DNA of 64,000 bases from an uncultured Gammaproteobacteria bacterium. Lineage in GTDB: Bacteria > Patescibacteriota > Microgenomatia > UBA12405. The translations under genes were made by a program, and so were the position numbers. The notes beneath the pieces were generated by a model. It saw only the letters and a list, made by a program, of their open reading frames with translations. It was not told the DNA's origin and made no database searches. This document shows positions 6,342 to 28,897 of the stretch, piece after piece; positions within the stretch are counted from its first letter, which is position 1, and each line of letters begins with the position of its first letter. The stretch is from contig CAYUZS010000001.1 in the NCBI GenBank assembly GCA_964448705.1, positions 114,687-178,686 of the forward strand, written 5' to 3'.

Positions 6342-7382
6342 TTAGCGGCGGAAAACAGAAGCACCGAAACGAAGCAGTTTCCAGCGAAGTTTATCAACTA
6401 AATTGTATAGTTTATAAAGTTTCGGGTTGATAACTAAATCATAAGTGCCGACAAACTGGACTAACTGACCGCCATATCCCTGTTTAAAACGGTGAAAACC
6501 ATAACCCTGCTCGCCTTCTTTGGCATCCGGCCCCAAACTGCCCCACATATCAAATTTTTTAAGATTCAACTTTTGGCCGAATTTAATAGTTTCCCACATG
6601 AGTAAATTTTGGGCCATTACTTCTTTGTGTTCAAATTTTGAAGAACCGTAGGGATAAAAAAGTTTATCCTGATTAACAAAAAGCATAAAGGCAGAGAGCA
6701 CCTGACCTTGATACTCAGAGAGCATAATGTGAACCATACCGGTTGGTTTTAAGATCTTCCATAAATTTTCATGGTACTGGCGGGAATGGAGATAAAAACC
6801 CTGACGTTTAGTAGTTTCGAACAATAAATCAAGATAAGTTTTAAAACCAGCAGCGTCGGTTTTTTCGTAAACCTTTACCCCATATCGATTGGCGATACGG
6901 ATGTTGTAACGGGTTTTGGAATGCATGTTGGCTAAAAGCTGATCTTCTGAGAGAGTAAGATCGACGACATACGAATAGGGATAAAAGGCTACTTTAGGTG
7001 AAACTTTTAAATCCGGAAAACTCATATCAACTTTTAAAGAAGTCGGATTATTGTTGGCATCAAAAGTTTTTTGATAAACGTCAGGCTCTAATTTCACAAA
7101 GATAGCTTTTTCGTCGATAGCAATTTTACGGATATTTTTAATCATTTCCTCATCGACCTGAGGACCACGAAGAATGGTGCCGATGGAATAATCAGTATGG
7201 GGAATCCGATGAAAACTGACCGAGTAGGCAGAAACCATTTTTTCGTTGTCGAAAACCCCAAGACGATAAATTTTATGACCTTCGTTGATTTGGAAATCAC
7301 CCCATTCCCATGTTTGAACAGGATGCTTAACTAATTTGTTATATTGGTTTTTTTCTTCGTCGTAGAGAATGCGGGTAATCAT
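6342..7382 (-). CDS. FemAB-family peptidoglycan interpeptide-bridge peptidyltransferase-like protein
   Basis: 346 aa with a FemX/FemA-like two-GNAT-lobe layout. N-terminus ..HPVQTWEWGDFQ.. resembles the FemX 'QS..W..K' region. Assigned by overall resemblance, not a strict motif. Confidence 0.55.
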   Translation of the reverse strand: MITRILYDEEKNQYNKLVKHPVQTWEWGDFQINEGHKIYRLGVFDNEKMVSAYSVSFHRIPHTDYSIGTILRGPQVDEEMIKNIRKIAIDEKAIFVKLEPDVYQKTFDANNNPTSLKVDMSFPDLKVSPKVAFYPYSYVVDLTLSEDQLLANMHSKTRYNIRIANRYGVKVYEKTDAAGFKTYLDLLFETTKRQGFYLHSRQYHENLWKILKPTGMVHIMLSEYQGQVLSAFMLFVNQDKLFYPYGSSKFEHKEVMAQNLLMWETIKFGQKLNLKKFDMWGSLGPDAKEGEQGYGFHRFKQGYGGQLVQFVGTYDLVINPKLYKLYNLVDKLRWKLLRFGASVFRR

Positions 7383-7454
7383 GTGGTAATTATAAATGAA
7401 AAAATTATTAAATACCCTTTATTTTCAAAATTCACTTAAATTTTTAAAAGAAAT

Positions 7455-9377
7455 TTAATAGATATCAGGATCATAGATAAGATCCGAGTCGTCGGATCGT
7501 TTTTGACGACGGAGATCGATAATTTTATCGACCGATTCCTCGTACTCGATTAGTTTTTGGGGAATATCCAACAAAAAACGGGAAGGTTCGTTTAGCGAAC
7601 TTTTGCCGAAAAATAGGCGTCTGGTAGCATAGGAAATATAGAGATAATCTTTGGCCCGGGTAATACCGACATAACAAAGCCGACGTTCCTCTTCGACTTC
7701 GGAATCGTCCATCATGGAACGGGAGTGAGGTAAAATCCCCTCCTCAAAACCGACCAAAAAAACGACTTCAAATTCCAAACCTTTGCTACTGTGGAGAGTC
7801 ATTAAGCGGACACCGTCACGATTTTCCTTCTTTTTATTTTTCTCCTGAAGGGAATACTCCTGCTGAACCAAGGCTATGTTTTCCAGAAAATCATTAATCT
7901 TTGGAAAGGAAGCGGCAACTGATTTTAATTCTTTAATATTTTCGATTCTTTTTTGATCTTCCTCATCTTTAAGATCGAATTTGTCCAGATAGCCGGAGTT
8001 GGTGACCAGAGACTCCAAAATCTGAAGTGAAGTTAACTTTTTAAGATCCAAATTTTTTAAGTGCTCTTCAAAAATAACCTTGCGGCGTTTACCCAGAGCT
8101 TTTTCGACACGGTCTTCTGAGATTCGATCATGACGGTCGTGGCCAAAACGGAGCATACTTAAAATGTCCTTAATTTCGGCTCTTTCATAAAATCGCAAAC
8201 CGCCAATTAGGACATAAGGAATGCTGTATCTTAAAAAAGCTTCCTCCAAAACACGTGATTGAGCATTCATCCGGTAGAGAACGGCAATCTGACGAAAAGG
8301 AATATGGAGGTTGGAATAAATAAAATTAATTTTTTGAGCGATGTATTCTGCTTCGGCAATTTCCGATTCAGCGGAAAAAATTTTAATTAAATCCGATGAT
8401 CTTTTTTCAGTGAATAATTTTAAAACCGGATGAGAAGAATTTTTGGAAATAACGGAGTTGGCAGCATCGAGAATAATTTGGGTTGAACGATAGTTTTGCT
8501 CCAAATTAATGACCGTCGCATTTTCAAAATCTGTCGTATAAGCAGTCAGGTTGTGATAATCGGCGCCGCGCCAGCCATAGATGGCCTGTGAGGCATCGCC
8601 GACCGCCGTAATTTGTTTATATTTATTAGCCAACAATTTGGTTAACAAATACTGAATTTGATTAGTGTCCTGATATTCGTCTACCAAAATAAAACGATAA
8701 ATTTCCTGATACTTGGTGAGTATTTCCGGATACTGAATAAAAAGTTCGACGGTTTTGAAAAGAAGATCATTAAAATCCAGAGCCTGAAATTCGGTTAGTT
8801 TTTGCTGATATTTTTTGTAAATTTTAGCGGCGGTGTTTTGCCAATAACCGCTGCTGCGTATTTCAGCATCAACCGGATTAACAAATTTATTTTTACAATC
8901 CTCAATATAGTACATAACTGAACTCGGCTTAAATTCCTGAGGAGTAAGGTTCATGTCTTTAAGCAACAATTTGACAATATTTTCCTGATCATCACTGTCG
9001 TAAATAACAAAATCAGGACTAATACCAAGAGAACGACCGTCGCTTCGAAGAACACGACAACAAAAAGAATGGAAAGTTCCTGCCCAAAGTTGGGAATTTT
9101 TGGATGAAGGCTTTGTGGAATTTTTCGTTTTAGCGGCTAGTGGAGAAAGCAATTTTGACATCCGTTGTTTCATTTCATCAGCAGCTTTGTTGGTGAAAGT
9201 TAACAACAAAATCTGCGAGGGAGAGGCTTGTTTTGTGGCGACAAAATAAGCCGCCCGATGGGTAAGAACTCTGGTTTTACCCGAACCGGCTCCGGCCAAA
9301 AGCAGAAGCGGTTTACCGGGAAAAGTGACAGCCTCTTTTTGAGCCGGATTAAGACCTGATAAAATTTCATCGAGCAT
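7455..9377 (-). CDS. uvrD: ATP-dependent DNA helicase UvrD/PcrA
   Basis: LLLAGAGSGKTRVLTHR (motif I), LLLTFTNKAADEM (Ia), TFHSFC, VDEYQDTN (II), and GITRAKDYLYIS near the C-terminus. 640 aa. Confidence 0.9.
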   Translation of the reverse strand: MLDEILSGLNPAQKEAVTFPGKPLLLLAGAGSGKTRVLTHRAAYFVATKQASPSQILLLTFTNKAADEMKQRMSKLLSPLAAKTKNSTKPSSKNSQLWAGTFHSFCCRVLRSDGRSLGISPDFVIYDSDDQENIVKLLLKDMNLTPQEFKPSSVMYYIEDCKNKFVNPVDAEIRSSGYWQNTAAKIYKKYQQKLTEFQALDFNDLLFKTVELFIQYPEILTKYQEIYRFILVDEYQDTNQIQYLLTKLLANKYKQITAVGDASQAIYGWRGADYHNLTAYTTDFENATVINLEQNYRSTQIILDAANSVISKNSSHPVLKLFTEKRSSDLIKIFSAESEIAEAEYIAQKINFIYSNLHIPFRQIAVLYRMNAQSRVLEEAFLRYSIPYVLIGGLRFYERAEIKDILSMLRFGHDRHDRISEDRVEKALGKRRKVIFEEHLKNLDLKKLTSLQILESLVTNSGYLDKFDLKDEEDQKRIENIKELKSVAASFPKINDFLENIALVQQEYSLQEKNKKKENRDGVRLMTLHSSKGLEFEVVFLVGFEEGILPHSRSMMDDSEVEEERRLCYVGITRAKDYLYISYATRRLFFGKSSLNEPSRFLLDIPQKLIEYEESVDKIIDLRRQKRSDDSDLIYDPDIY

Positions 9378-9401
9378 GTTATTGAGTATAGAGCCTAAAC
9401 C

Positions 9402-11489
9402 TTAGAGTTGGTAGATGTGGGTATCACCTGATTCAAAAATAATTTTGGCACCGAGATTAGTGAAAGTTTGTTCATTAAGTTCGGCATATTTTTCCCGTTC
9501 CTTATCGCCGACAAAAATATATTTAACGGCATATTTTTGGAGTAAAGATTGAGCTTCTTTAGGATTATCCGACTCATATATTTTTTTAACATCAGATTCT
9601 CTGGCAGCAGGTTGGTCATAACCACCACGCCACAACCATTCATGGACAATCCAACCTTCAACAGTCGGGAGACCGGTAGCAACTGAAACCTGATTAAAGG
9701 TGGTGTAACTGTCTCCGACAGCTTCCAAAATCACCGACTGACCGGAAATATTGTTGTTAATCCAATTGACTGCCTCGAAGTTGTCGGGGTAATTATTCTT
9801 CAGAAAATTCAGTCCCCATAAACCTTGGTATTTTTCCAGAGTGTAATACGACTTTACTGCAAAGTAGGGATAAATCATGTGACTGACAAAAACAAGTACA
9901 AAAATAAGTTTTAGGGGTAAATATTTTTTAAGACGAATAAAAATATATCCGGAAACCAGGGAGTACATAATAAATGCCTGGTAAACAAGTTTAAACATAG
10001 TGTTGGCCCGACGATGCTCATAAATATAGATGTCTTTCAGATAACCGATTTCAGGGAGGATAATTAAAAGAGTAGCGGTGACGATAAGCGAAAAAACAAA
10101 AACGTCGGCAGATGAAAAATGAAAACGATGTTTTAAATTTCTGAAAAAAGAAGATAAAAACCAGATAACAAATGGCAGAGAAATTAACCAAAAACCACCG
10201 TACAAAACAAACAATTGATAGAAAGGACTATGGCTGTCGGCCAGACGTAAGCCCTGAACCATGGGAGTGAAATTAAGAGAGAAAGGTAAATTAAACAAAT
10301 ACCAGGTGATAATAACCAATAAGCCATGAAAGACGGTAGTAAATAAAGCATTCTTAAAATCTCGCAAAAGAAGAAGATTAAAAAAAGTAAAAACAGCAAA
10401 AACCAGACCGTAGACAGCGAAGTCCCAGGCGTTTGTCATATAGGCAACAGAAAGAAGAAATCCGGAAGAGATTACCAGAGGCCAATCGATTTCCTGACGG
10501 CGAAGACGGGCAAAAGAAAATGATAAAGAAAAAAGAAGAGCCAGATAAAGTAGGACATTAGGAATGTCGTTCATGTGACCGTGAAGATCGGCGACGACAA
10601 AACTATAAATCGGAAATTCGTGAATAGTTTTGTCCTGAATATCGGGATCGTAGCCAATAAATCTGGTAGCATCGGGGTACCAATACATTTTAGCAGCGGT
10701 GGAAATTGCTTTTGGACTTAAAACCAAACTACCTTCATTTTGAATATCCAATTTTGCTATTTTATAAATTGAATGTAAATTTCCACCGAAGGTTAATAAC
10801 AGCGCCGAGAACAAACCGGCAACAATTATGGCTTTGAAATTTGTTTTTTTTAAAAAATTTGCGACTAAATTTGAAGACAAAGAAAAAGTTAAAGCAAAAG
10901 TTAAAGAACAGGTGGAGGCGATCGCCAAATTGTAAGTGATGGCCGAGGAAATACCGGAGAGCTTGGTGAGAACGGCAGTCATTAAATGGCCGAAATAATA
11001 ATAGTTGATCGGTGAGCCGGAGTACCACATATCGACCGGAGGCAGATATTGACTTCTGAGAGCCGAATTAACAAAACCCCAATCCATAAACTTTTCCAAG
11101 CCTTCAATATCCGGAGCATAACCACGGATAAAAGACCAAGCGATTAAGACCACCAGGAAAATTATTTCTTCAACAATGAAATATTTTTTATTTTTTCGGA
11201 GAAGATTTATGAAGTCTTTGAAATTATCGGAACGACGAAGATAAATAAAATCTAAAATCAGAAAAAATATTATGATCAGCAAAAGCGAAGTAATAGTAAA
11301 AGGAAGTAAACGAAATACACCCAAAACAAAAATAACATAAGTTAAAATGATGAGGGAAATTACTTTGGAAAAAAGATAACCCTTGTCCCAAAATTTTTTG
11401 AAAATCGAAAAGGTTAGAGGGAGGGCAATCGAGCCAACGACAAAAAACGTTGACCACCACAAAATAATATATTTAAAATCTGAAAACAT
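9402..11489 (-). CDS. large polytopic membrane protein, DUF2298 / Chlor_Arch_YYY-type
   Basis: 695 aa with about 14 predicted TM segments, an INYYYFGH 'YYY' motif in a loop and a C-terminal soluble domain. This family co-occurs with GT-C transferases. Confidence 0.5.
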   Translation of the reverse strand: MFSDFKYIILWWSTFFVVGSIALPLTFSIFKKFWDKGYLFSKVISLIILTYVIFVLGVFRLLPFTITSLLLIIIFFLILDFIYLRRSDNFKDFINLLRKNKKYFIVEEIIFLVVLIAWSFIRGYAPDIEGLEKFMDWGFVNSALRSQYLPPVDMWYSGSPINYYYFGHLMTAVLTKLSGISSAITYNLAIASTCSLTFALTFSLSSNLVANFLKKTNFKAIIVAGLFSALLLTFGGNLHSIYKIAKLDIQNEGSLVLSPKAISTAAKMYWYPDATRFIGYDPDIQDKTIHEFPIYSFVVADLHGHMNDIPNVLLYLALLFSLSFSFARLRRQEIDWPLVISSGFLLSVAYMTNAWDFAVYGLVFAVFTFFNLLLLRDFKNALFTTVFHGLLVIITWYLFNLPFSLNFTPMVQGLRLADSHSPFYQLFVLYGGFWLISLPFVIWFLSSFFRNLKHRFHFSSADVFVFSLIVTATLLIILPEIGYLKDIYIYEHRRANTMFKLVYQAFIMYSLVSGYIFIRLKKYLPLKLIFVLVFVSHMIYPYFAVKSYYTLEKYQGLWGLNFLKNNYPDNFEAVNWINNNISGQSVILEAVGDSYTTFNQVSVATGLPTVEGWIVHEWLWRGGYDQPAARESDVKKIYESDNPKEAQSLLQKYAVKYIFVGDKEREKYAELNEQTFTNLGAKIIFESGDTHIYQL

Positions 11490-11492
11490 AAT

Positions 11493-13010
11493 TTAATAAA
11501 ACTCCCCTATTATAAAAGCAGGTGAACCATTTGGATAGTTTATGATTTTATGAGATACAAATTTCCGACCGGGAAGATATTCGGGGTAATCACGTAAAGT
11601 ATCCGGAGTGATGGCAAAAAGCTGACTTTTACGGGAATCATAATCATTAGTACCGCAAATTTGACATTTGTCCTGACAATAATTGTCAGGATCATAAAAC
11701 TTAAGAAAAATATCAGGAGAATTAAAAGCACCTTCAAGACATAATTGCTGATAAGAATCTTTGTTTTGTAAAAAATAGTTCATTACCGGTTTAGCGCCGT
11801 ACTGCCAACCCCAAAAATCCGAAGAGTACTGAGGATATTTTTCCAAAAGACGGGAGAAATTTAAAACCGATAAAAACATAATAGTAAAAAATATAAATAA
11901 AATTATATTTTTAATTTTAAATTTTTGGGCGTAATCGAGCAGATAAACAAGACCAACTGCGCAAGCAATTTGGAAAGGGACGACACCGATAACCGATCGG
12001 GTAGCCTGGGGGTTAACCTGAGTAAAGATAGTACCAAGAGGATAAATTAGGAGGAAAAAGACAATAAATAAGAGAGATTTATTTTTTTTATATGAGGTGA
12101 TGGTTTTAAACAAAAAAGAAACCAACAAAGGCAGTTGAAACCAATAAAGTTGACCTAAACCTCGAACTGAATGACGGGTAATAAACTGGCCGGGAAAATC
12201 GATATCCCCTTTTTGAAAAAGAAACTCAAGAGAAAAATGATTGAGATATGAATTAAAAATTTCCGAATAAGCCAGAGGTTCTTTGGTAACCTGGTGCCAT
12301 CTGGAGAAAAAAGAGCCGTCAACAAGCGAGCTGCGAAGTAACAAAAACATCACCAGAAGTGAAGTAAAATTAGTGAGCCAAAACAGAGGTTTTTTGATGA
12401 TCGGCGACAAAGAAGAAAAATGAGTAAGAAAAAACAGTAAAACCAGAACCGGCAAGTAAAGTTTGGGAGTTGTGTAACTTAAAAAAGCGATCATCAAAGA
12501 AACAGCCGCCAGAGGATAAAAAACCAGGTTTTTAATACTTTTTTCCAGCAGATAGAGAGACAACACCACCCAAAAGACAGAAGCAATTAATTCAAAACCG
12601 ACCCGACTAAAAAGAATATGCCACGGAGAAACTGATAAAAATAATGCCGAAAGGATGGCTGTCGGAAAACCAAACAATTCCCGGACGTAAAAAAAGATAA
12701 CAAGAATAGTTAAAAGACCGTAAATTACCGAAACTAAACGCAGCGAATATTCACTTAAACCAAAAAGTCCAACAATAGGTGCCGCCGAATAAATATAAAC
12801 CGGATTTTTATAGTCATCAAAAGAACGAAAAAATAGCGGAAAAGTATTTCCAAAACTATCTTTACCGGTTTGCCACAAATTATATGCTTCATACCCAATC
12901 GAGGCTTCGTCACAAAAAAATCCGGCCGGATTTTTGGAAAGTCCGGTTAGACGAAAAAAACATCCCAGCAGCAAAACAAGAATTAATAACCATCCTTTTT
13001 TGAAAGGCAT
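11493..13010 (-). CDS. GT-C glycosyltransferase, family 39/83-like (ArnT/PMT-type)
   Basis: 505 aa, polytopic. The first periplasmic loop carries FFCDEASIGYEAYNL, the DE..Y catalytic motif of ArnT/PMT enzymes. Confidence 0.65.
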   Translation of the reverse strand: MPFKKGWLLILVLLLGCFFRLTGLSKNPAGFFCDEASIGYEAYNLWQTGKDSFGNTFPLFFRSFDDYKNPVYIYSAAPIVGLFGLSEYSLRLVSVIYGLLTILVIFFYVRELFGFPTAILSALFLSVSPWHILFSRVGFELIASVFWVVLSLYLLEKSIKNLVFYPLAAVSLMIAFLSYTTPKLYLPVLVLLFFLTHFSSLSPIIKKPLFWLTNFTSLLVMFLLLRSSLVDGSFFSRWHQVTKEPLAYSEIFNSYLNHFSLEFLFQKGDIDFPGQFITRHSVRGLGQLYWFQLPLLVSFLFKTITSYKKNKSLLFIVFFLLIYPLGTIFTQVNPQATRSVIGVVPFQIACAVGLVYLLDYAQKFKIKNIILFIFFTIMFLSVLNFSRLLEKYPQYSSDFWGWQYGAKPVMNYFLQNKDSYQQLCLEGAFNSPDIFLKFYDPDNYCQDKCQICGTNDYDSRKSQLFAITPDTLRDYPEYLPGRKFVSHKIINYPNGSPAFIIGEFY

Positions 13011-13580
13011 TTATTTTATAAAAAAAACGAAGTTAAAAATTAGACGAATAATGTCCGTCCAAGCGGAAGGAAAGTAAACCAGACTCGATAAAAACCAAAT
13101 TAGGATTCCCAGAATCAGTCCTCCGTAAATATCGATTGGGTAGTGAAAACCTACCAAAACTCTAAATGAAAGCAGGGGAACAACAACTAAAAGATAGATA
13201 TATGGAGACATTACTCCCGAAGTAACTACAAATAAGAAAAAGAAAACTGCCTTAACGGTGTGACCTGAGGGAAAACTACCTGATTTATACCAACTATCGA
13301 CTAAACCGGCGGGAGTACTGTCGTGACGGACAAACATTGGCCGGCGCCAATAAATTTTCGATTTGATTACCCTTTCAACGATTTCGGAAAGAATGCTGGC
13401 AATTAAAATCTGCCAAAAATAATTAGTTTTCTCTCTGATTAACAAAAATGAAATAAAGAAAAGAAAAACCCAAATCAAATAATTTAAAAAAATAAGCACC
13501 GGTTTAAGATATTCACGTTGAGTGAATAATCGAAGATAATCAGTCTTCGGCTGCCAAAAAAATAATTTTGATTTTCTCAT
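13011..13580 (-). CDS. PAP2-family lipid phosphate phosphatase
   Basis: All three PAP2 motifs are present: KIYWRRP (KX6RP), SFPSGH (PSGH) and SFRVLVGFHYPIDI (SRX5HX3D). Confidence 0.8.
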   Translation of the reverse strand: MRKSKLFFWQPKTDYLRLFTQREYLKPVLIFLNYLIWVFLFFISFLLIREKTNYFWQILIASILSEIVERVIKSKIYWRRPMFVRHDSTPAGLVDSWYKSGSFPSGHTVKAVFFFLFVVTSGVMSPYIYLLVVVPLLSFRVLVGFHYPIDIYGGLILGILIWFLSSLVYFPSAWTDIIRLIFNFVFFIK

Positions 13581-13596
13581 GATAAAGTAACTTTAT

Positions 13597-14685
13597 ATGT
13601 ATAAAAAGAAAGTACTTTTTGGGATAACCTATTATTTACCCAATATTTCCGGAGTGACCCAGTATGCAGTAATTTTAGCTGAGGAATTAGCAAAAAGAAA
13701 ATACCTGGTGGAAGTTTTATCCGCCAAATTCAAAAAAGAATTGGATGAAGAAAAGATGATTAATGAGGTGAAGGTAATCAGAGTGAAAGGCTTTGGTCTG
13801 GGAAAAGGATTTATTATGCCCTACTATTGGATAGAATCATTAAAAAGAGTCCGGGAAAATGAGGTTATCGTCTGCCATTTACCGTCGATTGAATCTTTTT
13901 GGCTGGCGTTGTGGGGAAAATTGTTTCACAAAAAAGTTATTATTATCCATCATTGTGAATTTTCATTTTCGGGAACAGTTACAAATAAAATAATTGCAGG
14001 TCTCAGTTTTCCAATTCACCTGTTTACCTATGCAATGGCCGATAAAATCACAGCCTATACCAAGGACTATGCTCAGCACTCGACCTTTTTAAGAATGTTT
14101 AAAAATAAAATTGAATACATATTACCGCCAATCAAAATAGAGGAAACAGATAAAAAATTCAATTTAGGAAAAGAAAAAATTGTTGGATTCGTGGGTAGAA
14201 TCGGTTGGGAGAAAGGTTTGGTATTCCTGATTGAAGCCATGAAAAAAATCGAGGCCAAACTGGTTTTGGCCGGACCATATCAGGAGGTGGTTGGTGACAA
14301 AACATATGAAAAATTAAAAAAAATTATTGACAAGAAAATAATCTTTTATGGGCCGATAAATCATAAAGATCTGAAAGGTTTTTATAACCAATGCGACTGT
14401 TTGGTTCTTCCCAGCATTAATAATTTGGAAACATTCGGAATTGTTCAGGCGGAGGCAATGAAATGCGGAGTCCCGGTGGTGGCTTCCAATTTACCAGGGG
14501 TAAGAGTTCCGGTAAAAATGACCGGAATGGGGGAAATTTGTAAAATTGAAAACAGTCAAGATTTAGCCGAAAAAATCAATTTAGTTTTAAAAAGAGGCAA
14601 AAAATATTATCAAAACAGAGCCAAAAACCTGGAAGATTTCAGCTATCTTAAAACTGTTGATGCTTTTGAAAGATCAATACTTTAG
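13597..14685 (+). CDS. glycosyltransferase family 4 (GT-B, retaining)
   Basis: C-terminal ETFGIVQAEAMKCGVPVVASNLPGV matches the EX7E/GT4 nucleotide-sugar binding motif. 362 aa. It is the only plus-strand gene inside the minus-strand glycosylation block. Confidence 0.8.
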   Translation: MYKKKVLFGITYYLPNISGVTQYAVILAEELAKRKYLVEVLSAKFKKELDEEKMINEVKVIRVKGFGLGKGFIMPYYWIESLKRVRENEVIVCHLPSIESFWLALWGKLFHKKVIIIHHCEFSFSGTVTNKIIAGLSFPIHLFTYAMADKITAYTKDYAQHSTFLRMFKNKIEYILPPIKIEETDKKFNLGKEKIVGFVGRIGWEKGLVFLIEAMKKIEAKLVLAGPYQEVVGDKTYEKLKKIIDKKIIFYGPINHKDLKGFYNQCDCLVLPSINNLETFGIVQAEAMKCGVPVVASNLPGVRVPVKMTGMGEICKIENSQDLAEKINLVLKRGKKYYQNRAKNLEDFSYLKTVDAFERSIL

Positions 14686-16345
14686 GGTGGTCGTAGACAG
14701 TAAAACTTTCCTCGGCAATATCGTCGCGAAAATAAATACCGGGATAATTACAGGAGTCATCTTTGGAAAACCAAGAATTGCTACCACCCGGATAGTTGGT
14801 TGGACCAAGGAAGTAACAGGCTTTCAAAAAAGACAAACTGAAACCCGGATAAGAATTTATTTCTATTAGTTTTTGGAAATCGGAAGTACCGTCAAAAAGA
14901 CGACGATAAAATTTTGAAGTCACCGGATAAAGATCGGTGAGACGGGGAATCGAACCCCAAAGACGATTAGAAGACATAATCAGATACTGCGCCTGGCCGA
15001 GCTGATTCTGAATTACCGGCCATTTAGTCTCTGAGGAATCGGGATCGTAAAGACTTAACATCAGACCATGATAAATATTCGGATCAAGATGAGGGAGATA
15101 AAACGGAAGCGGATCATCCCAATTTTCGTTGGTAATCACCGAACCGGCAGGAAGATGTTCATAAATCCAGTAAGCAGCCTGAACCCGGGAGTTGGGGTGA
15201 AAATAAATATTTAAAAAGGCTAAAGTAAAAAATGATTGGATCAAAATAAGTATTTTAAAAAAACGCGGGTTTAAGTTTTGACAAAGAGAAACCGAAATTA
15301 AGACTATAAAAGGATAAATCGGCAAAAAATATCGTACGTTGTGGGTAAACTGTGAACCCTGAAAAATAAATAACACAAAAATCCAAAACAAAATAATTAT
15401 TTGTAAATTAAATTTCCGGCGGATTTTGAAAAGTGAAAAAACAAAAAAGATAAACAACGGCAGACCTAATCCGAAAAGAGCAATATTTTCCAGCGAATGG
15501 AATAAAGGTAGACGATTAAACCATTGGATTGACGGAGGGAAAAAACTGTTCGGACTGCTCATCTCTTTTAAAGAGAGAAGGCTGGAAACAAATTTGGGAT
15601 TGGGAGTTAATAATCCGGTAAATGAATACGGTTGTAAAATTCTAAAAGCCAAAAAACTAACAAGAGCAAAAATAAAAGCATGAAAAATAGTTTTTAAAAA
15701 ATGAGAGGACCGGCGATAGTGGTAGAAAAACAAAAGTAAAATGATTGGGGATAAATAAACAGCTGACATTTTAGACGCCAGAGCCATGCCGAAAAACACC
15801 CCGGCAAGAGGGAAAAAACCATAAGTCAGTGAGACAAAAGTGGCCAAAAGAAAAGTGTTTAAGAAAGTATCAGTGGCATAGAAATGGGAAAGCTGAAGAG
15901 GAAGGACAGTGAGACCATAAAGGAGAGAGGGAATAAAACGCAAAAAAGGTTTTTTGATAATTTTTCTGGCCAGAAAATAAAGTAGTAAAACATTAAAGGA
16001 ATCAAAGAGAGCCGATAGTCCCCGGCCGAGAAGATGGATGGTTCCATAACTATCAAGATTAAAAGCGACTGCGGCAATTTTGGTTAAAAATATCGGAAAA
16101 GTGCCATAAACAAAAAACTGATAACTGGGATGATTAAACGGATTTAGAGGAGAGGCGGCAGTGTCGAAATACTGAAACAAACTATTGGGCAACTTGATGT
16201 CATTGGTAACCATCGTCAAAAAACGTTCATCAGGGTGTAAATGTTGCCCCTGATCCCAATTTAAACCAAGAATCCGGAGACTAAAAGAAAAAATAAATAT
16301 AAACAAAAGAATGAAAAAGGTTTTAGTTTTGGAAAAGTTGTTCAT
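14648..16345 (-). CDS. GT-C superfamily membrane glycosyltransferase ('HPDE' type)
   Basis: Polytopic. The first-loop motif HLHPDERFL is paralogous to the next gene. The track ORF 14648..16402 would overlap the upstream gene by 80 nt, so the internal Met start at 16345 is preferred. Confidence 0.5.
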   Translation of the reverse strand: MNNFSKTKTFFILLFIFIFSFSLRILGLNWDQGQHLHPDERFLTMVTNDIKLPNSLFQYFDTAASPLNPFNHPSYQFFVYGTFPIFLTKIAAVAFNLDSYGTIHLLGRGLSALFDSFNVLLLYFLARKIIKKPFLRFIPSLLYGLTVLPLQLSHFYATDTFLNTFLLATFVSLTYGFFPLAGVFFGMALASKMSAVYLSPIILLLFFYHYRRSSHFLKTIFHAFIFALVSFLAFRILQPYSFTGLLTPNPKFVSSLLSLKEMSSPNSFFPPSIQWFNRLPLFHSLENIALFGLGLPLFIFFVFSLFKIRRKFNLQIIILFWIFVLFIFQGSQFTHNVRYFLPIYPFIVLISVSLCQNLNPRFFKILILIQSFFTLAFLNIYFHPNSRVQAAYWIYEHLPAGSVITNENWDDPLPFYLPHLDPNIYHGLMLSLYDPDSSETKWPVIQNQLGQAQYLIMSSNRLWGSIPRLTDLYPVTSKFYRRLFDGTSDFQKLIEINSYPGFSLSFLKACYFLGPTNYPGGSNSWFSKDDSCNYPGIYFRDDIAEESFTVYDHPKVLIFQKHQQF

Positions 16346-17864
16346 ATTGATTAAGAGTACGCGGACTGGTTTTTTGATAAATTCTGATTGTCGGATGATC
16401 AAATACAGACCAGGTTTCTTCGGCGTTTTCGGAATTCAGAATAATGTCCGGGTTTTGACTGAATTCTTTAATTTTCGTAAAACCTAATAAATTATTAAAA
16501 AGAAGCCGATGGTAATCATAATTATAGTTTTTAAAAACGCGGCGTGAAGGAACAATTATATATTCGGAATTTTCTACCAACTTAACTACTTCGTCGGAAT
16601 GATAATTATAAAAATCATAATTTTTAACCCGGAGTTGGTTATCAAAAAGAGGAATATCGACAACGTTACCACCCTCAGAAAGAACCGGTGAATTTTCCGG
16701 GAGATTAGTGTTTAACCAACGACTGGCAGTAATCCGAATATCGGGATGGAGATATAAACTCTGGAAAAAATAAATACCGGGTAAACAGGAGACAAAAATA
16801 AAAAATATTTGTAAATATTTACTTTTTAAACGACTGATAAAATAAACGGTGAATAAGGGAAACAAAAAATATAAGGGTGACATAAAACGGGTCCATTTAA
16901 CGTACAATTGGCCAAAATACAGAAAATAGACTAAAGAAGGGAAAAGGATATAAACCCAAAGATTATTTTTTAAACGACGAGAGAATATATTAACAGCAAA
17001 GATAATTAACCCGATTAAACCGAACAGGAATTGCGGTAGTCCGGAAACATAGGGAAAGATACGTGTAAGCTGAAAAATATAAGGAGTAGTGCCGGAAAAT
17101 TGGGTGGTATAAAAAACTTTTAGCTGGCCGGAAGCTACTTCGGTTTCATATTTCATACTGGAAATAAAATCCGAAAATTGAAGAAGATTGTAGGGAGAAA
17201 AAGCAACAAAGGACAAAAGACAAACTAATAACATTAAAAATACTCCCAAAATCGGAAGTCGTTTTTTAGGAGATTTGAACAATAAAACAAAGGATGCCAA
17301 TAAAGGAGGCCCTAAAAAGATGAGAGAAGAAATTTTAGTAGCTATCCCAAGACCGCTAATAAGACCGGCTAATAAAAAAAACAGATATTTTTTTGGCTGA
17401 CTGACAATTTTTATGGACAAATAAATATTAGATAAAAAAACAAAGATCAAGAAACTCTCTGTCGTACCAAAGTGGGCCATTTGAATAAGTCCGGGATTAA
17501 AAATGGTTAAGAATGAAGCCGCTAATGAAAATTTTTGGCTGAATAAATGTCGGGAAATATAATAAACCAATAAGATAGAAGCAACGGAAAATATCGCTGA
17601 CCAAAAACGTAAAACAAAAACGGCATTATTAAAACTTGTGGCCACAGAAAGAGCCTTGAGAGTAAAAAAACCTAAATATAGGGGAAATTGGCCATAAGCA
17701 AAAAAATGAGGATTAAGATCCCCTATCTGTAGGCGGGAAACAGCACTAGCCATATTATTTTCATCCGGATGAAAATAAAAACCGCCACCCCAAGCTAAAC
17801 CGACAAACCTAGTTAAAAAGGCACAAATAAAAAGGATGACAAATAAAGAAGACTTAGAGAACAT
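16323..17864 (-). CDS. GT-C superfamily membrane glycosyltransferase ('HPDE' type), paralog
   Basis: 513 aa, about 12 TM segments. The first-loop motif GGGFYFHPDENNMAS is shared with the 14648 gene. Confidence 0.5.
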   Translation of the reverse strand: MFSKSSLFVILFICAFLTRFVGLAWGGGFYFHPDENNMASAVSRLQIGDLNPHFFAYGQFPLYLGFFTLKALSVATSFNNAVFVLRFWSAIFSVASILLVYYISRHLFSQKFSLAASFLTIFNPGLIQMAHFGTTESFLIFVFLSNIYLSIKIVSQPKKYLFFLLAGLISGLGIATKISSLIFLGPPLLASFVLLFKSPKKRLPILGVFLMLLVCLLSFVAFSPYNLLQFSDFISSMKYETEVASGQLKVFYTTQFSGTTPYIFQLTRIFPYVSGLPQFLFGLIGLIIFAVNIFSRRLKNNLWVYILFPSLVYFLYFGQLYVKWTRFMSPLYFLFPLFTVYFISRLKSKYLQIFFIFVSCLPGIYFFQSLYLHPDIRITASRWLNTNLPENSPVLSEGGNVVDIPLFDNQLRVKNYDFYNYHSDEVVKLVENSEYIIVPSRRVFKNYNYDYHRLLFNNLLGFTKIKEFSQNPDIILNSENAEETWSVFDHPTIRIYQKTSPRTLNQYEQLFQN

Positions 17865-18777
17865 AGATAATAGTGATGATCATTAGCCCCCACGAAACAA
17901 CTGACAATAACAGGGGGATATCTGTGGCAATAGTTCTTTCCGGACGCTCCCCTTCCTGCATTTCAAAAATAATCTGACCATACCTCATAATTCCGTAAAT
18001 AACCGGCACGATTGTTACCATGTACCATTTTCGGTCCAACGCAGAAGGAAAGTTTTCTAGAAGATAATTGCTAATGACACCCTCAAAACGAACTTTTTCT
18101 TCAAAAAAAGTAAACATGGAATAAGTCAATAAAGTACAAACTGCAAACATGGTGGTATAAAAATTGAGCAAGGCTTTGCCATAACCGGTCATGGCCGATC
18201 TGGTTTTAGTGCCGGTATTGAAAAGTTCACTGCGGCGTTTTCCACTGGCAATAAAGAGTGATAAGAAAATAACCGTCAACATGATCCAAACGGGAAGATG
18301 ATAACCGGTAGCAATTTCTCCGGCGTAAGCCCGGATAATGAAAAATAAAGAGATGCCGATAATATCAAAAACCGCTTTCTTTTTGAAAATAAATGAATAT
18401 GAATACTGCAATAAAATAAAAACAAAAGAAATTAAAAAGAATCCGGAGTTTACCATCAGCGATATACCCAATCCGGAAAATAAAAGGACAAATACCATAA
18501 TTACGGCCGTATTTACGGATATATCACCATGAGCCAGAGGACGAAACTTTTTAAAAGGATGCTGTTGATCTTTTTTAATATCCAAAAGATCGTTTACCAG
18601 ATATGAGGAAGATGAGAGCAGACAAAAAGTGATGAAAGCCATAAAACTCTGCGAGAAAATTTCGGGGTCAAACAGTTTACCGTTAAGAATAGCAGCAGCA
18701 AAAAGACTGAAGTTTTTAATCCATTGATTTGGACGAAGAGATTTAAATAAGGAAACGAATTTAGTTTTTTTTTCCAT
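17854..18777 (-). CDS. UbiA-family prenyltransferase, decaprenyl-phosphate phosphoribosyltransferase (DPPR synthase)-like
   Basis: RPNQWIKNFSLF plus NDLLDIKKDQQHPFKKFRP (the NDxxDxxxD UbiA motif followed by 'HP.K..RP', as in Rv3806c-like enzymes). 307 aa, about 8 TM segments. Confidence 0.7.
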   Translation of the reverse strand: MEKKTKFVSLFKSLRPNQWIKNFSLFAAAILNGKLFDPEIFSQSFMAFITFCLLSSSSYLVNDLLDIKKDQQHPFKKFRPLAHGDISVNTAVIMVFVLLFSGLGISLMVNSGFFLISFVFILLQYSYSFIFKKKAVFDIIGISLFFIIRAYAGEIATGYHLPVWIMLTVIFLSLFIASGKRRSELFNTGTKTRSAMTGYGKALLNFYTTMFAVCTLLTYSMFTFFEEKVRFEGVISNYLLENFPSALDRKWYMVTIVPVIYGIMRYGQIIFEMQEGERPERTIATDIPLLLSVVSWGLMIITIIYVL

Positions 18778-18781
18778 TACT

Positions 18782-19819
18782 TTACAATAATATCAAGAAA
18801 CCAAGCAAAGTGACAATAACTCCGACAACTCCCAAGACTTGCCCCGGAAGTTCGAATCCGGCACTGGGCAAAATAATTCTGGTAGGACTGGGACCGGAAG
18901 CAAGAGCGGCAGTACCAGTGGGAATCGGAGGTGATGTTGGAGTAATAGTGGGAGTGGAGGATATGACCAAGGTGACAGTGGGGGTGGAAGTATTGGTGGG
19001 TGTAGAAGTCGGCTGAAGAGTACCAGTGGGGGTTGAGGTAGGAATTAATGTTTTTGTCGGAGTAAGAGTTCGGGTGGGAGTAAGAGTTCTGGTCGGAGTT
19101 AAGGAAAGAAATCTAGTTGGAGAAGGAGTGCGGGTGGGAGTTAAGGTTGGAGTAGAAGGCCGGGTGGGAGTTAGAGTGCGGGTGGGAGTAAGAGTTCTGG
19201 TCGGAGTTAAGGAAAGAAATCTAGTTGGAGAAGGAGTGCGGGTGGGAGTTAAGGTTGGAGTAGAAGGCCGGGTGGGAGTATTGGTAGGATTAGTTTGACA
19301 ATTTCGGTCAACAGTACTGATAAAACAATTGTTAGTGTAATCAATTTGCTGAACACCACAATAATTACTATCAAAACAAACAGAGGTGACATTACGGAGA
19401 GTTTCGACATTATCCTGACAACCGCCGGCAGTATCAAATCGATTCGGACATTTATATTTATTAACCACCGAAAGAGTACCACTGGTAGCAGTGATACAAC
19501 GACCAACGATCTGAGCATGGGCTTCTGAACAGGTAAAATTACTAGGATCAGTGCCGCCGCCCTCGGTTGGACAACGACCTGTATCCGGAGTTGTACACTG
19601 CCAGACTCCGGAAGTTGCTGAAGAAAAAGCAATACAAGTACAGAGAAAACCCGTGTTTTTACCGGAAGAATTTTGTTGGCAAGAAGTTCTGCCGACAGGA
19701 CTGCAAGTTTCGTCACCTGTGGCACGATTACGATTGTCCTGATTTTGTCTGACGAGATAAAGTCCCCCAAACATGGACAAAATTAACAAGACTAAACTAA
19801 ATATTCCGTATCTTTTCAT
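18782..19819 (-). CDS. membrane-anchored surface protein with Cys-rich ectodomain and Pro/Thr tandem-repeat linker
   Basis: N-terminal signal anchor, a domain with at least 14 Cys, 36-aa TPTRTLTPTRTLTPTRPSTPTLTPTRTPSPTRFLSL repeats, and a C-terminal hydrophobic segment preceded by ILPSAGFELPG. Confidence 0.5.
   Translation of the reverse strand: MKRYGIFSLVLLILSMFGGLYLVRQNQDNRNRATGDETCSPVGRTSCQQNSSGKNTGFLCTCIAFSSATSGVWQCTTPDTGRCPTEGGGTDPSNFTCSEAHAQIVGRCITATSGTLSVVNKYKCPNRFDTAGGCQDNVETLRNVTSVCFDSNYCGVQQIDYTNNCFISTVDRNCQTNPTNTPTRPSTPTLTPTRTPSPTRFLSLTPTRTLTPTRTLTPTRPSTPTLTPTRTPSPTRFLSLTPTRTLTPTRTLTPTKTLIPTSTPTGTLQPTSTPTNTSTPTVTLVISSTPTITPTSPPIPTGTAALASGPSPTRIILPSAGFELPGQVLGVVGVIVTLLGFLILL
19061..19294. 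repeat. 108-bp tandem repeat (two full copies plus one partial) encoding PT-rich linker
   Basis: The unit gtaagagttctggtcggagttaaggaaagaaatctagttggagaagg... occurs at 19079-19186 and 19187-19294, with a partial copy just upstream. Confidence 0.8.
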
Positions 19820-21129
19820 CTTCTAAGATAATATAGAGAAAATCCAAATAAGATTATTGATAATAATACGAGAAAATAAGTAGGAAAGGAACCACCTGTT
19901 TGATATAAAGTAGAAGAAGTGCTGGAAGGTGTGACCGTTTCTGTAATTGGAGTAATTGAAGGTTTAAGAGTGTCGGTCGGGGTTAAAACAACAGTAGTAG
20001 GAATAACAGCAGTAGTAGGAATAACGGAAGGAACGGCAGTGGGAATAATGGTAGCGGAAGACGAGGCTTGGTATGACGGGCCGTCATCATCTCCGGCCAG
20101 GACAGTGAAATTTCTGGTAACTGTTTCCCAAATACCAGTGGTAGTGTTTTGAACTTTAACGGTGATGGTGTGTTTACCGGGAGCTAAATCGCTTGGCGGC
20201 GACCAATGCCAGGAACCGGAATTATCGGCTAAGGACTCTCCATTAATAACAGTTTCGGAATTAACTTCGATAATAACTTTTGAACTGGCCGGTGCAGTGC
20301 CAAAAAAATCAGGACGGACAACATTCAGTGTTTCGTTATCCTGGGGATTAAAAATATCAACTGATTTTTCCGACTGAACATTGGTAGTATCAACAACTTT
20401 TCCGACAGGTAAGGATGTAACTTGAGGAGCGGCCAGAGAATCACGACCGATAACAATATCGGGAACAGGGTTGTTAAGAGCAGTGCTGTTGGTAACCTGA
20501 GTGGTTGTGCCGTCATCTGAAATAACCACAATGTCTTCGTCAGTGGCATTTTCCGGAGGAATGAACCAGTCTGTTTTAGAATCGTTAAAAGTACTGGCTA
20601 AAGAAACCGACCAGTTTCCGTCAGTGGTGATAAAAGACGAAAGCGGTGAGGCTCCGGGAATGTTGAGATAAACAAGAGCATTAACTGCAGGTTTAGACTC
20701 GGCATCAAAAACTTTTCCCCAAGCCAGATTGGAAGTCGGGAGAGAAGATACCGGATTGGAACCTGTTTCAAAAACAAAGCTGTTTTCGGTATAATTTTGA
20801 CCTCCGCTGATAATGGTGTAATTATAGGAAGTATTGTTTTTAAGGTTCCTAACCTGAAAATAATGAATTTTTGTGGCGGTATCGTTTTTGATATCCGATA
20901 AAAGTTGACCATTAACAGAGAGACTAACCAAACAGGAGGCCGAAGTTAGAAAAGAAATATCTGCGGTACTATTAGTAATATTGGTAACCTGAGAATTTAT
21001 AGGAATACAGTCGCCACTGGCTTTTGAACCCAAACTGGTTCTGTTAGTGGTTAAATAGATGCCGACAAAAAGAGCAATTATTAAAAATATCAGACCTAAG
21101 ATAGTGGGAAAGCGTTTTTCTTTATTCAT
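19816..21129 (-). CDS. Thr/Ser-rich surface protein, N-terminal signal anchor, C-terminal TM with RR tail
   Basis: 437 aa. The C-terminus ..STLYQTGGSFPTYFLVLLSIILFGFSLYYLRR has a motif-hydrophobic-basic-tail layout like a sorting signal. Rich in N-x-T sequons. Confidence 0.45.
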   Translation of the reverse strand: MNKEKRFPTILGLIFLIIALFVGIYLTTNRTSLGSKASGDCIPINSQVTNITNSTADISFLTSASCLVSLSVNGQLLSDIKNDTATKIHYFQVRNLKNNTSYNYTIISGGQNYTENSFVFETGSNPVSSLPTSNLAWGKVFDAESKPAVNALVYLNIPGASPLSSFITTDGNWSVSLASTFNDSKTDWFIPPENATDEDIVVISDDGTTTQVTNSTALNNPVPDIVIGRDSLAAPQVTSLPVGKVVDTTNVQSEKSVDIFNPQDNETLNVVRPDFFGTAPASSKVIIEVNSETVINGESLADNSGSWHWSPPSDLAPGKHTITVKVQNTTTGIWETVTRNFTVLAGDDDGPSYQASSSATIIPTAVPSVIPTTAVIPTTVVLTPTDTLKPSITPITETVTPSSTSSTLYQTGGSFPTYFLVLLSIILFGFSLYYLRR

Positions 21130-21350
21130 GGGAAGATCGATTCAGCCGAATAATATTTTCGGTTTTGAATTTCATCGAGGGTTTTAGTATCTAGATTGGG
21201 ATTAATCGGTTTTAAAATGTCACTGGTTTTGATTTCATTTGAAGGTCCGATTAAGTTGGAATAACTTTGTTGAACAATAAAAACAAAAATAGCCAAAAAA
21301 GTGAAAATACTGACTAATAGAAGATAGGTAGTAATTTTATTTTTGATCAT
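21126..21350 (-). CDS. small membrane protein (hypothetical)
   Basis: Track ORF 21126..21443, internal start MIKNKITTYLLLVSIFTFLAIF preferred to limit overlap with the upstream gene. One TM segment. Confidence 0.25.
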   Translation of the reverse strand: MIKNKITTYLLLVSIFTFLAIFVFIVQQSYSNLIGPSNEIKTSDILKPINPNLDTKTLDEIQNRKYYSAESIFP

Positions 21351-22002
21351 TTGTTTTTGGAGACCAATAATAAAAATTAGCAGTAAAGTCCGTGGAAACA
21401 GATCCGGATGGGGCGGCACTTTCGGTTGACTCTGAGGCGGCAATACCTCTGGTTACTCCAACACCGATGGAATTGATATTAATCAGACGACGATTTTTCA
21501 GCAATTCGGAAACTAATTTAACTGCAGAATTAAACTGACCTTCAATATTAAGAGATATAGTGTAAATTCCGACATTGGGATCAATACTCTTTTTGGAATT
21601 ATTTTGGAAACCGTACTGTAAGGTGGAAATATTTAAACCGGCATCCTGGCCGCTTTTTTGAATTTGATTGGCAGCCTGATAAAATTGGGGAGTATCCGGA
21701 AGACTGTCATTAACAATTTGATAATGTTCCTGAACTTCGGAAAAAACCTCCTGAGCAGCAACAACCTTGTCGATTTTAGTTTTTAGCTGGGTTTTAAGAA
21801 TTTGCTTTGATTTTATTTCTCCAACCAAAGAAGAAATAGTTAAGGCGGTGGGGCGGATGGCAAAAATTAAGAAGAAAATAATTAAAACGAAAGTAGCGGT
21901 TATTTCCAATGATTTAAGAAAACGCTGATTCTCCTGTTTTTTCCTAACATAGTCCATGAGAGGCCGGAGCCGGTTCATTTGGTTGCTGATAATGGGGTTC
22001 AT
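21337..22002 (-). CDS. PilO-like bitopic membrane protein (type IV pilus alignment-complex-like)
   Basis: Short cytoplasmic N-terminus, one TM segment, then a coiled-coil and a C-terminal domain. 4-nt overlap with the PilN-like gene upstream. Confidence 0.4.
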   Translation of the reverse strand: MNPIISNQMNRLRPLMDYVRKKQENQRFLKSLEITATFVLIIFFLIFAIRPTALTISSLVGEIKSKQILKTQLKTKIDKVVAAQEVFSEVQEHYQIVNDSLPDTPQFYQAANQIQKSGQDAGLNISTLQYGFQNNSKKSIDPNVGIYTISLNIEGQFNSAVKLVSELLKNRRLININSIGVGVTRGIAASESTESAAPSGSVSTDFTANFYYWSPKTNDQK

Positions 22003-22562: not shown

Positions 22563-22581
22563 AATAACAGTATATATAAAT

Positions 22582-24192: not shown

Positions 24193-24256
24193 TGGCTAAT
24201 TATAGACGATAGATAAAATGTTGTATTTAAGTAGATCTTAAGATAAAATACTTTCC

Positions 24257-28888: not shown

Positions 28889-28897
28889 TGTAGTAGA

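Follow-up and report, generated by a model that had tools for sequence, protein, structure and literature searches.

The closest published concept for the locus described here is the three-component pentofuranose system, which in Citrobacter youngae O1/O2 comprises ORF15, a fusion of a polyprenyl-phosphate 5-phosphoribosyltransferase (PPPRS) with a HAD 'PRP' domain, the MATE flippase ORF14 and the GT136 enzyme ORF12, a glycosyltransferase (GT) of the GT-C fold, with or without an epimerase (Kelly et al. 2024, PMC11127046). Further candidates were found in Gram-positive and Gram-negative bacteria, some of them with several GT-C enzymes. The 5'-phosphate of the lipid-linked sugar is removed by a PAP2 enzyme (Rv3807c) or by the HAD domain of ORF15, and the known arabinofuranose (Araf) and xylofuranose (Xylf) systems hold their epimerases within the modification system (PMC11127046). 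In the Pseudomonas pilin system, the GT-C enzyme TfpW modifies Ser/Thr residues of a surface protein. Here we analyse a 64,000-nt stretch of contig CAYUZS010000001.1 (assembly GCA_964448705.1; "the window"), in which a gene cluster at 9402-18777 encodes a UbiA-type PPPRS candidate, a PAP2 phosphatase, a GT4 enzyme and several GT-C proteins, one of which belongs to the DUF2298 family. This cluster is probably part of a Microgenomates-wide system for extracytoplasmic pentofuranose glycosylation.

Bacteria of the Candidate Phyla Radiation (CPR), or Patescibacteria, to which the Microgenomates belong, make up much of bacterial diversity and spend their lives attached to other cells. To our knowledge, their envelope chemistry is essentially unknown. 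An initial annotation of the window had likened the cluster to the mycobacterial pathway for decaprenyl-phosphate arabinose (DPA). Our best reading is that the logic of a lipid-linked pentose passed to GT-C enzymes holds, and that an arabinan product is not supported.

The UbiA protein belongs to the phosphoribosyltransferase family

By family, the UbiA protein is a polyprenyl-phosphate phosphoribosyltransferase, with an enzyme activity predicted from its sequence. It carries the motifs N62-D63-x-x-D66-x-x-x-D70 and H73-P-x-K76-x-x-R79-P, and it passes the equivalog model for decaprenyl-phosphate phosphoribosyltransferase (NF008978) by a narrow margin, scoring 213 bits where 207 are required. 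It is followed by two sister models and a HAD-UbiA fusion model, and the quinone, heme, chlorophyll and archaeal-lipid UbiA models give 39 bits or less. In the PDB, the top match is Mycobacterium tuberculosis Rv3806c (8j8j) with an E-value of 3.4e-39, as compared to 1.7e-7 for the next UbiA structure.

The paper describing the Rv3806c structure names R22, K28, Y70, N73, D77, K87, R90, Q135, Y138 and K143 among the residues that contact Mg, ribose, 5'-phosphate and pyrophosphate, and reports that the phosphoribose-binding sites are not conserved across the wider UbiA superfamily of ordinary prenyltransferases. All ten residues, which bind phosphoribosyl pyrophosphate (PRPP) or Mg, are identical in the window protein when aligned with HMMER (R15, K21, Y59, N62, D66, K76, R79, Q124, Y127 and K132), and all ten are invariant in 33 Microgenomates homologs. 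They include the phosphoribose-specific ligands K28, Y70 and Q135, which correspond to K21, Y59 and Q124. Two further positions differ: Y157 of Rv3806c is F146 here and K208 is replaced by Ser. The Tyr-to-Phe variant at position 157 also occurs in mycobacteria, according to the same structure paper. Through NF008978, Rv3806c and the ligand residues, the protein thus groups with the decaprenyl- and polyprenyl-phosphate phosphoribosyltransferases, as had been annotated initially. It did not cluster with menaquinone or heme-O prenyltransferases, so the PPPRS assignment stands.

A core gene set recurs across Microgenomates genomes

To place the cluster in context, one genome per species was scanned with two motifs of DUF2298, which yielded at least 592 relatives, and the window proteins were compared by tblastn with the best 80 of these loci, all of which are Microgenomates-type. 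Gene presence was counted in the 51 loci that have at least 9 kb of sequence upstream of DUF2298. UbiA was found in 40, both members of a pair of GT-C genes named here HPDE-a and HPDE-b in 45, and PAP2 in 39, and these counts define a core of UbiA, HPDE-a, HPDE-b, phosphatase and DUF2298. The GT4 gene, on the opposite strand, is a frequent accessory (28 loci), and the additional GT39-like gene is a rare and lineage-specific one (2 loci). Outside the cluster, UvrD is present in 46 loci, FemAB in 42 and the gene for a 437-residue Big_13 protein, upstream of UbiA, in 40. Dozens of species-level genomes share this order of genes, an arrangement far from chance, and the MurJ and FemAB neighbourhood of the locus is also conserved.

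Two side observations concern these relatives, which we number with the prefix L. One lineage (L003, 14382-15473, and L004, 13200-14291) has a DUF362-family gene, which also matches the Npun_F2552 family weakly, at the position held by GT4 in the window. Many related contigs (L009, L010, L013 and others; L040; L075), although titled for instance 'uncultured Gammaproteobacteria', 'Candidatus Methanoperedens' or 'Clostridia bacterium', show the Microgenomates gene order and 45-62% protein identity, and their titles look like mislabelling or mis-binning.

A phosphatase position is occupied by PAP2 or HAD proteins

The PAP2 protein has intact KX6RP, PSGH and RX5HX3D motifs. Its top PDB match is LpxE (E = 0.006), a similarity to characterised enzymes at the level of the family. 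Directly upstream of DUF2298, the 72 loci with enough flanking sequence have PAP2 in 52 cases and a HAD protein in 11; two loci carry both and seven carry neither. Where UbiA is present, a phosphatase fills this position without exception (40 of 40 loci: PAP2 in 35, HAD in 3, both in 2). The HAD identity rests on motifs together with a sub-threshold Pfam match, and a search with a HAD protein from a sister locus gave nothing informative against PDB and NCBIfam. Because PAP2 and HAD replace each other at one position, and because the same two alternatives serve in the known systems, the comparison gives good evidence, short of proof, that this position holds the 5'-phosphatase of the pathway. 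By analogy with those systems, PAP2 is the proposed 5'-phosphatase for polyprenyl-phosphate-ribose-5-phosphate.

The HAD proteins found upstream of DUF2298 are small (175-185 residues) and share the motifs DxDGV, VSS and IDDD. They occur in L008, L013, L035, L054, L057, L060, L061, L068, L069, L072, L075, L076, L077 and L081. In most of these loci the HAD protein stands in for PAP2, and in L008 and L013 the two coexist.

The donor sugar is most likely ribofuranose

Enzymes that could alter or export the sugar were searched for with Pfam in most window open reading frames (ORFs) of at least 100 residues, in 10 kb beyond the left end of the window and in the Pfam annotation of the related loci L001-L004. 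No DprE1 (FAD_binding_4/ALO), DprE2 (SDR) or NAD-epimerase domain was found in the scanned ORFs of the 64-kb window, the 10 kb beyond its left end or the L001-L004 annotations. Likewise, no GT2-type polyprenyl-phosphate-hexose synthase was present among the scanned window ORFs, in the 10 kb beyond the left end or in the L001-L004 annotations. PPPRS is the only lipid-linked sugar synthase in view, which argues that the adjacent GT-C enzymes use its product. Since no epimerase accompanies the cluster and the known systems keep theirs inside, ribofuranose becomes the default donor sugar. By analogy, the most likely product would be polyprenyl-phosphate-ribofuranose.

A true DPA-type pathway, in which enzymes encoded elsewhere would epimerise the ribose to D-arabinofuranose or xylofuranose and the GT-C enzymes would build an arabinan-like glycan, appears rather unlikely. 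The pairing of PPPRS with a PAP2-family protein recalls that of Rv3806c with Rv3807c, and several GT-C enzymes would suit the priming, elongation and branching of an arabinan, but the missing DprE1, DprE2 and NAD-epimerase domains speak against it, as does the habit of known Araf and Xylf systems of keeping their epimerases in the modification system (PMC11127046). An FAD oxidoreductase that some sister loci encode next to UbiA or in its place could perform a sugar-oxidising step that has gone unrecognised, but it is absent from the window. The initial comparison with mycobacteria therefore survives in part: the genes are best read as making a lipid-linked pentose from PRPP, which GT-C enzymes would then transfer outside the membrane, but the DprE1/DprE2 step was not found in the searched DNA.

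The FAD oxidoreductase just mentioned is of the amine-oxidase/CrtI type (NF005560, 'hypothetical protein', 413 bits). It lies beside UbiA in L054 (681-1949) and at the UbiA position in L069, L072 and L075, which have no UbiA. It is also found in L071, L074 and L083. The protein might modify the sugar or the polyprenyl carrier.

Candidates for the flippase

No GtrA, SMR or MATE flippase was found in the locus, in the scanned window ORFs, in the 10 kb beyond the left end or in the L001-L004 annotations. The sole protein of the MOP superfamily nearby is MurJ, which lies about 4 kb upstream in the same gene string and has a full lipid II flippase score. MurJ is one candidate for the flippase; the other, on the model of Agl23 or TfpW, is a GT-C-like protein of the locus.

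A variant of the latter idea, in which DUF2298 or an HPDE paralog is the missing flippase rather than a transferase, is compatible with the favoured pentofuranose system; we regard it as unlikely. It would account for the lack of a dedicated flippase gene in the locus. Precedents exist: the archaeal GT-C-like protein Agl23, which is PMT_2-like (TIGR03663), flipped lipid-linked glycans in proteoliposomes when purified, and TfpW has been proposed to combine flipping with transfer. TIGR03663 and TIGR03662/DUF2298 proteins co-occur in genomes, as the TIGRFAMs description records. However, no protein of the locus reaches the TIGR03663 cutoff of 126.25 bits. The best, the GT39-like protein, scores 38.7 bits, and the HPDE proteins have no match. 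Membership of the locus GT-C proteins in the Agl23 family was accordingly rejected. In addition, HPDE-a and DUF2298 carry invariant acidic residues after the first transmembrane helix (TM1), which are typical of catalytic GT-C enzymes.

Four proteins with a predicted GT-C fold

GT-C enzymes have their catalytic base in an acidic site after TM1. HPDE-a and HPDE-b, both of which have the HPDE motif just after TM1, are full-length paralogs (25% identity, E = 2e-33). HPDE-a exceeds the Pfam cutoffs for PMT_2 (49.4 bits) and PMT (33.6 bits), and its D34 and E35, directly after TM1, are invariant. The PMT_2 match of HPDE-b is sub-threshold at 18.9 bits. When an AlphaFold2 (AF2) model of HPDE-a (pLDDT 91.5, pTM 0.91) was searched against the PDB with Foldseek, the top 45 matches were all GT-C proteins, led by STT3/AglB at about 1e-8 and followed by ALG9, ArnT, Pmt4 (which has the highest TM-score, 0.56), PglB and DPY19. 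The GT-C fold predicted for HPDE-b follows from its paralogy with HPDE-a.

The DUF2298 protein is a full member of its families, scoring 470.5 bits against a cutoff of 300.25 for TIGR03662 and 321.9 against 27.8 for PF10060. The segment N162-Y-Y-Y-F-G167 is invariant, as is D35 directly after TM1. Its AF2 model is usable (pLDDT 79, pTM 0.86), and the segments of low confidence are its most conserved loops. The top 13 Foldseek matches were again all GT-C: DPY19, STT3, AglB, AftA (TM-score 0.47/0.52), PglB and Pmt4. The C-terminal domain resembles that of AglB weakly. Sequence searches of the PDB with HPDE-a, DUF2298 and the GT39-like protein returned no matches. Together, the modelled folds of HPDE-a and DUF2298, the paralogy of HPDE-b and the GT39-like protein indicate that the locus encodes four GT-C-fold proteins. 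The two paralogous HPDE enzymes described initially are thus confirmed as paralogs, with the GT-C fold found in the model of HPDE-a, and both modelled proteins match GT-C structures. EmbA-C, AftA, AftB and AftD match the HPDE-a model at E-values of 1e-3 to 1e-2, as opposed to 1e-8 to 1e-5 for STT3, ALG9, ArnT and PMT, so the model lies nearer to the latter. The GT4 protein reached no NCBIfam equivalog cutoff, and the literature searched assigns no function to DUF2298, which is mentioned only in passing.

The kinship of HPDE-a with protein mannosyltransferases raises another possibility, namely that the HPDE enzymes mannosylate or glucosylate Pro/Thr-rich proteins from a polyprenyl-phosphate-hexose made elsewhere, while PPPRS and PAP2 feed a single GT-C or an unrelated product. 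We consider this quite unlikely. The PMT and PMT_2 matches, the DE motif in the first loop, the position of Pmt4 as the structure of highest TM-score, the Pro/Thr-rich proteins with sortase-type signals that adjoin the cluster in 19 of 39 loci, and the persistence of the GT-C genes in loci without UbiA all fit it. It is opposed by the lack of the corresponding GT2 synthase among the Pfam-scanned window ORFs, and by the fact that half of the loci have no Pro/Thr-rich neighbour. It is also opposed by the physical link between UbiA and HPDE-a, in which the UbiA stop and the HPDE-a start overlap by 11 nt, as they do in relatives.

Finally, the fold matches invite the suggestion that DUF2298 is an oligosaccharyltransferase (OST) of the STT3/AglB type that N-glycosylates a sequon-rich neighbour. 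STT3, AglB and PglB are among its top fold matches, its C-terminal domain is weakly AglB-like, its invariant loop 'DKTIHEFP' is reminiscent of the TIxE motif in OST loop EL5, and the 437-residue neighbour has more sequons than expected. Even so, we hold it to be very improbable. The TM-scores to OSTs are low (about 0.3), and when a profile of the DUF2298 alignment was run against all PDB sequences, STT3, AglB and PglB were not among the matches. The proposal was rejected for this lack of an OST sequence match, for a resemblance confined to the fold and for a sequon excess that, as shown below, is not conserved.

Acceptor candidates and the cell wall

Two surface proteins lie next to UbiA. The nearer, of 345 residues, combines a Cys-rich domain with a long stalk of Pro/Thr repeats and ends in a signal of the form 'RIILPSAGFELPG + hydrophobic'. 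Within the stalk, at 19059-19280, lies a 108-bp (36-residue) tandem unit in 2.1 copies that match at 97%. Another assembly of the same organism has a form of 309 residues, shorter by exactly one unit, and two more assemblies break at the gene. It seems that the stalk either varies in length in the population or collapses in assembly. Proteins with the same C-terminal signal occur between Big_13 and UbiA in 19 of 39 loci, and the remaining loci have no gene there. Position-equivalent Pro/Thr-rich proteins (in the window, with the C-terminus encoded near 18782-18880, and in L001-L063) all end in 'RI[VI]LPxxG[VFI][DE]FP...hydrophobic...GFLILL' and lack a basic tail; this shared motif may be a CPR-specific LPxxG sortase signal.

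The farther protein, of 437 residues, has 15 N-x-S/T sequons where 7.4 are expected (z = 3.1). Among 39 Big_13 orthologs, the median z is 0.35 and 302 sequons are observed as compared to 268 expected, so the excess is not shared. The initial remark that the surface proteins next door are rich in N-x-T therefore applies to the 437-residue protein of this genome, but it does not extend to the orthologs. The C-terminus 'LYQTGGSFPTYF...YYLRR' is conserved, for example in L050. With a Pro/Thr-rich neighbour in 19 of 39 loci and an unconserved sequon excess, protein glycosylation is possible and not specifically supported; the 345-residue protein is a possible acceptor.

Other features point toward the cell wall. 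In 13 of 71 loci (L066, L069, L071-L076, L078, L080, L081, L083 and L084), DUF2298 is immediately followed by a convergent LCP (LytR-CpsA-Psr) gene, and all but one of these loci come from more divergent lineages (DUF2298 42-46% identical; the exception 55%). Among loci with enough flank on both sides, LCP alone is present in 9, UbiA alone within 10 kb in 34, and both in none. PPPRS and the GT-C set may thus be linked in some lineages only. In some DUF2298 homologs (P0313, P0320, P0331, P0347 and P0358), a LysM domain is inserted in the C-terminal soluble domain, which suggests that this domain lies beside peptidoglycan. The LCP gene, the LysM inserts and the conserved MurJ/FemAB neighbourhood point to a cell-wall acceptor. 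They also hint at a bolder version of the pentofuranose system, which we put forward as a tentative and rather improbable idea: a wall-anchored pentofuranan, either a ribofuranan or an arabinan-like secondary cell-wall polymer, that would be built from polyprenyl-phosphate-pentofuranose wholly outside the membrane, with DUF2298 and HPDE as new families of GT-C polymerases. If true, such a polymer would be the CPR counterpart of mycobacterial arabinan.

Locus layout and gene neighbourhood

The named genes and motifs of the initial annotation are present as described, but the cluster has seven genes rather than eight (Table 1); the remaining ORFs in 9402-18777 are short and nested inside them. 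From MurJ (24192) to HPDE-b (14648), the genes form a single co-directional string with gaps or overlaps of at most 19 nt, except at HPDE-a/HPDE-b, where the overlap is 23 nt from the ATG at 16345 and 80 nt from the TTG start. The resulting HPDE-b length of 565 residues is also that of public gene calls. A promoter and terminator scan of 7000-25000 gave counts no higher than in shuffled sequence, so the operon boundaries rest on gene spacing alone. Scans of the window for tRNA genes and Rfam families found no matches.

Table 1. Genes of the cluster and of its surroundings in the window
Feature	Position	Strand	Residues	Evidence and remarks
UbiA, predicted PPPRS	17854-18777	-	307	NCBIfam NF008978
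HPDE-a, GT39/PMT-like GT-C	16323-17864	-	513	Pfam PMT_2 and PMT
HPDE-b, GT-C paralog	14648-16345	-	565	Likely true start ATG 16345; mechanical ORF from TTG 16402
GT4 (GT-B) glycosyltransferase, cytoplasmic	13597-14685	+	362	Pfam Glycos_transf_1, 121.8 bits
PAP2 membrane phosphatase	13011-13580	-	189	Pfam PAP2, 42 bits
Extra GT39/PMT_2-like GT-C	11493-13010	-	505	Pfam PMT_2, 44.5 bits; motif 'CDEASIGY'
DUF2298/TIGR03662 'YYY' membrane protein	9402-11489	-	695	Motif 'INYYYFGH'; C-terminal soluble domain
Pro/Thr-rich surface protein	18782-19819	-	345	C-terminal LPSAG-type sorting signal
Big_13 Ig-like surface protein	19816-21129	-	437	Pfam Big_13; Pro/Thr/Ser-rich tail; C-terminal YQTGG, transmembrane segment and RR
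Small transmembrane protein	21126-~21350	-		Member of the co-directional string
PilO-like	21337-22002	-		PilO, 24.8 bits, weak
PilN-like	21999-22562	-		Weak match
MurJ	22582-24192	-		TIGR01695, 262.9 bits (cutoff 235.6)
FemAB	6342-7382			Flanks the locus
Sortase fused to fn3 domain	29974-31497			
Fourth PMT_2-type GT-C protein	47390-48634	+	414	30.2 bits; no NCBIfam match; far from the locus

The window has a low GC content (about 0.38). Proteins of the locus have close homologs in Candidatus Shapirobacteria, Woesebacteria and the 'Microgenomates group', which marks the source as a Microgenomates-type bacterium. As is usual for CPR/Patescibacteria, the window encodes GatCAB, FemAB, UvrD, MurJ, weak PilN/PilO-like matches, a sortase, subunits of pyruvate:ferredoxin oxidoreductase and numerous surface proteins. 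Public annotation, made by homology, already names a 'decaprenyl-phosphate phosphoribosyltransferase', a 'glycosyltransferase family 39 protein' and a 'DUF2298 domain-containing protein'. The initial statement that no other cell-wall genes are in view did not hold: MurJ and FemAB flank the locus, and the sortase and a fourth PMT_2 protein lie farther along the window.

Some further genes stand apart from the cluster. The region 60776-62370 (+) encodes a membrane flavocytochrome resembling ferric reductases and NOX (Ferric_reduct, FAD_binding and NAD_binding), followed by a cytochrome b5-like protein, which is unusual for CPR. A superoxide dismutase with an N-terminal extension is encoded at 28775-29461, and an 804-residue protein with 14% Asn and no Pfam match at 35520-37934 (+).

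Discussion

In the mechanism that we propose, the UbiA-type PPPRS would convert PRPP to a lipid-linked five-carbon sugar, and PAP2, judged by its family and conserved position, would take off the 5'-phosphate to give polyprenyl-phosphate-ribofuranose, a step that a HAD protein at the same position may perform in some sister lineages. The lipid-linked sugar would then be flipped to the outer face, for which no dedicated GtrA, SMR or MATE gene is in view. There, HPDE-a, HPDE-b and DUF2298, together with the accessory GT39-like protein, would transfer the pentose to an acceptor outside the membrane, or polymerise it there. This acceptor may be a glycopolymer associated with the cell wall or the Pro/Thr-rich stalk region of surface proteins that are anchored to the wall. 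GT4 may build a cytoplasmic primer.

Several observations weigh against this mechanism. First, 11 of the 51 loci keep DUF2298, and several of them the HPDE GT-C genes too, with no UbiA within 10 kb, so that the tie between the GT-C set and PPPRS is not strict, unless those genomes encode UbiA at another site. Second, PAP2 resembles characterised enzymes only at the family level and could instead recycle polyprenyl diphosphate. Third, the HPDE-a model is more like STT3, ALG9, ArnT and PMT than the Emb/Aft pentofuranosyltransferases. Fourth, the absence of an epimerase holds for only some 74 kb of one genome and some 20 kb of related loci. Fifth, no flippase was identified in the scanned window ORFs or in the 10 kb beyond the left end.

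A PRPP-derived pentofuranose surface glycan is thereby predicted for the Microgenomates, and DUF2298 motifs occur in at least 592 species-level genomes. The prediction provides testable targets, such as envelope sugar analysis, lectin or antibody labelling or sorting of uncultured cells, and enzyme assays. It is also a first specific functional hypothesis for the DUF2298/'YYY' family, as a GT-C enzyme that would work with a lipid-linked pentose. For the pathway that contains the tuberculosis drug targets Rv3806c and DprE1, the locus would represent a simpler, epimerase-free relative far outside the Actinobacteria and Proteobacteria.

As for how the locus relates to described systems, it resembles mycobacterial DPA synthesis in having an Rv3806c homolog whose PRPP-binding residues are the same, a candidate phosphatase partner from the PAP2 family and several GT-C enzymes predicted to work on the outer side of the membrane. 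Unlike the mycobacterial pathway, it has no DprE1/DprE2 and no GtrA-like Rv3789 in view, its GT-C proteins are no closer to Emb/Aft than to other GT-C families, and there is no galactan or mycolate context. The D-arabinofuranosylation of pilin in P. aeruginosa Pa5196 and P. paraeruginosa (PsPA7_6246-6249 and TfpW) likewise joins a PPPRS-based lipid-linked pentofuranose donor to a GT-C enzyme. As in that system, where a surface protein is modified, the present locus adjoins PilN/PilO-like genes (weak matches) and Ser/Thr-rich surface proteins. DprE1, DprE2 and a GtrA-like protein are encoded in the Pseudomonas cluster but were not found in the present locus, and no pilin gene was identified beside the latter. 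With the TIGR03662/Agl23 families of Archaea and Chloroflexi, the locus has in common a full TIGR03662 member of 695 residues paired with PMT_2-like GT-C proteins, although these partners fall under the TIGR03663 cutoff.

The likeness to the C. youngae system, as predicted here from the genes, comprises a PRPP-dependent UbiA-type PPPRS, dephosphorylation to polyprenyl-phosphate-ribofuranose, extracytoplasmic transfer by GT-C enzymes and ribofuranose as the default when an epimerase is absent. It differs in that the phosphatase is a separate PAP2 protein (or a separate HAD protein in some sister loci) instead of a fused HAD domain, that the cluster includes no MATE flippase, that three to four PMT_2/GT39-like and DUF2298 GT-C proteins take the place of one GT136, and that the host is a CPR bacterium without a known O-antigen. 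The literature searched contains no paper linking CPR bacteria to a PPPRS pathway, so the initial description of the system as unstudied is apt for CPR bacteria, but the type of system was described in 2024 (PMC11127046), together with the pilin D-Araf system of P. aeruginosa, and the initial annotation named neither. What is new relative to these is a cluster in which neither an epimerase nor a dedicated flippase was found and which combines three to four GT-C proteins, of the GT39-like and DUF2298 kinds, in a CPR host.

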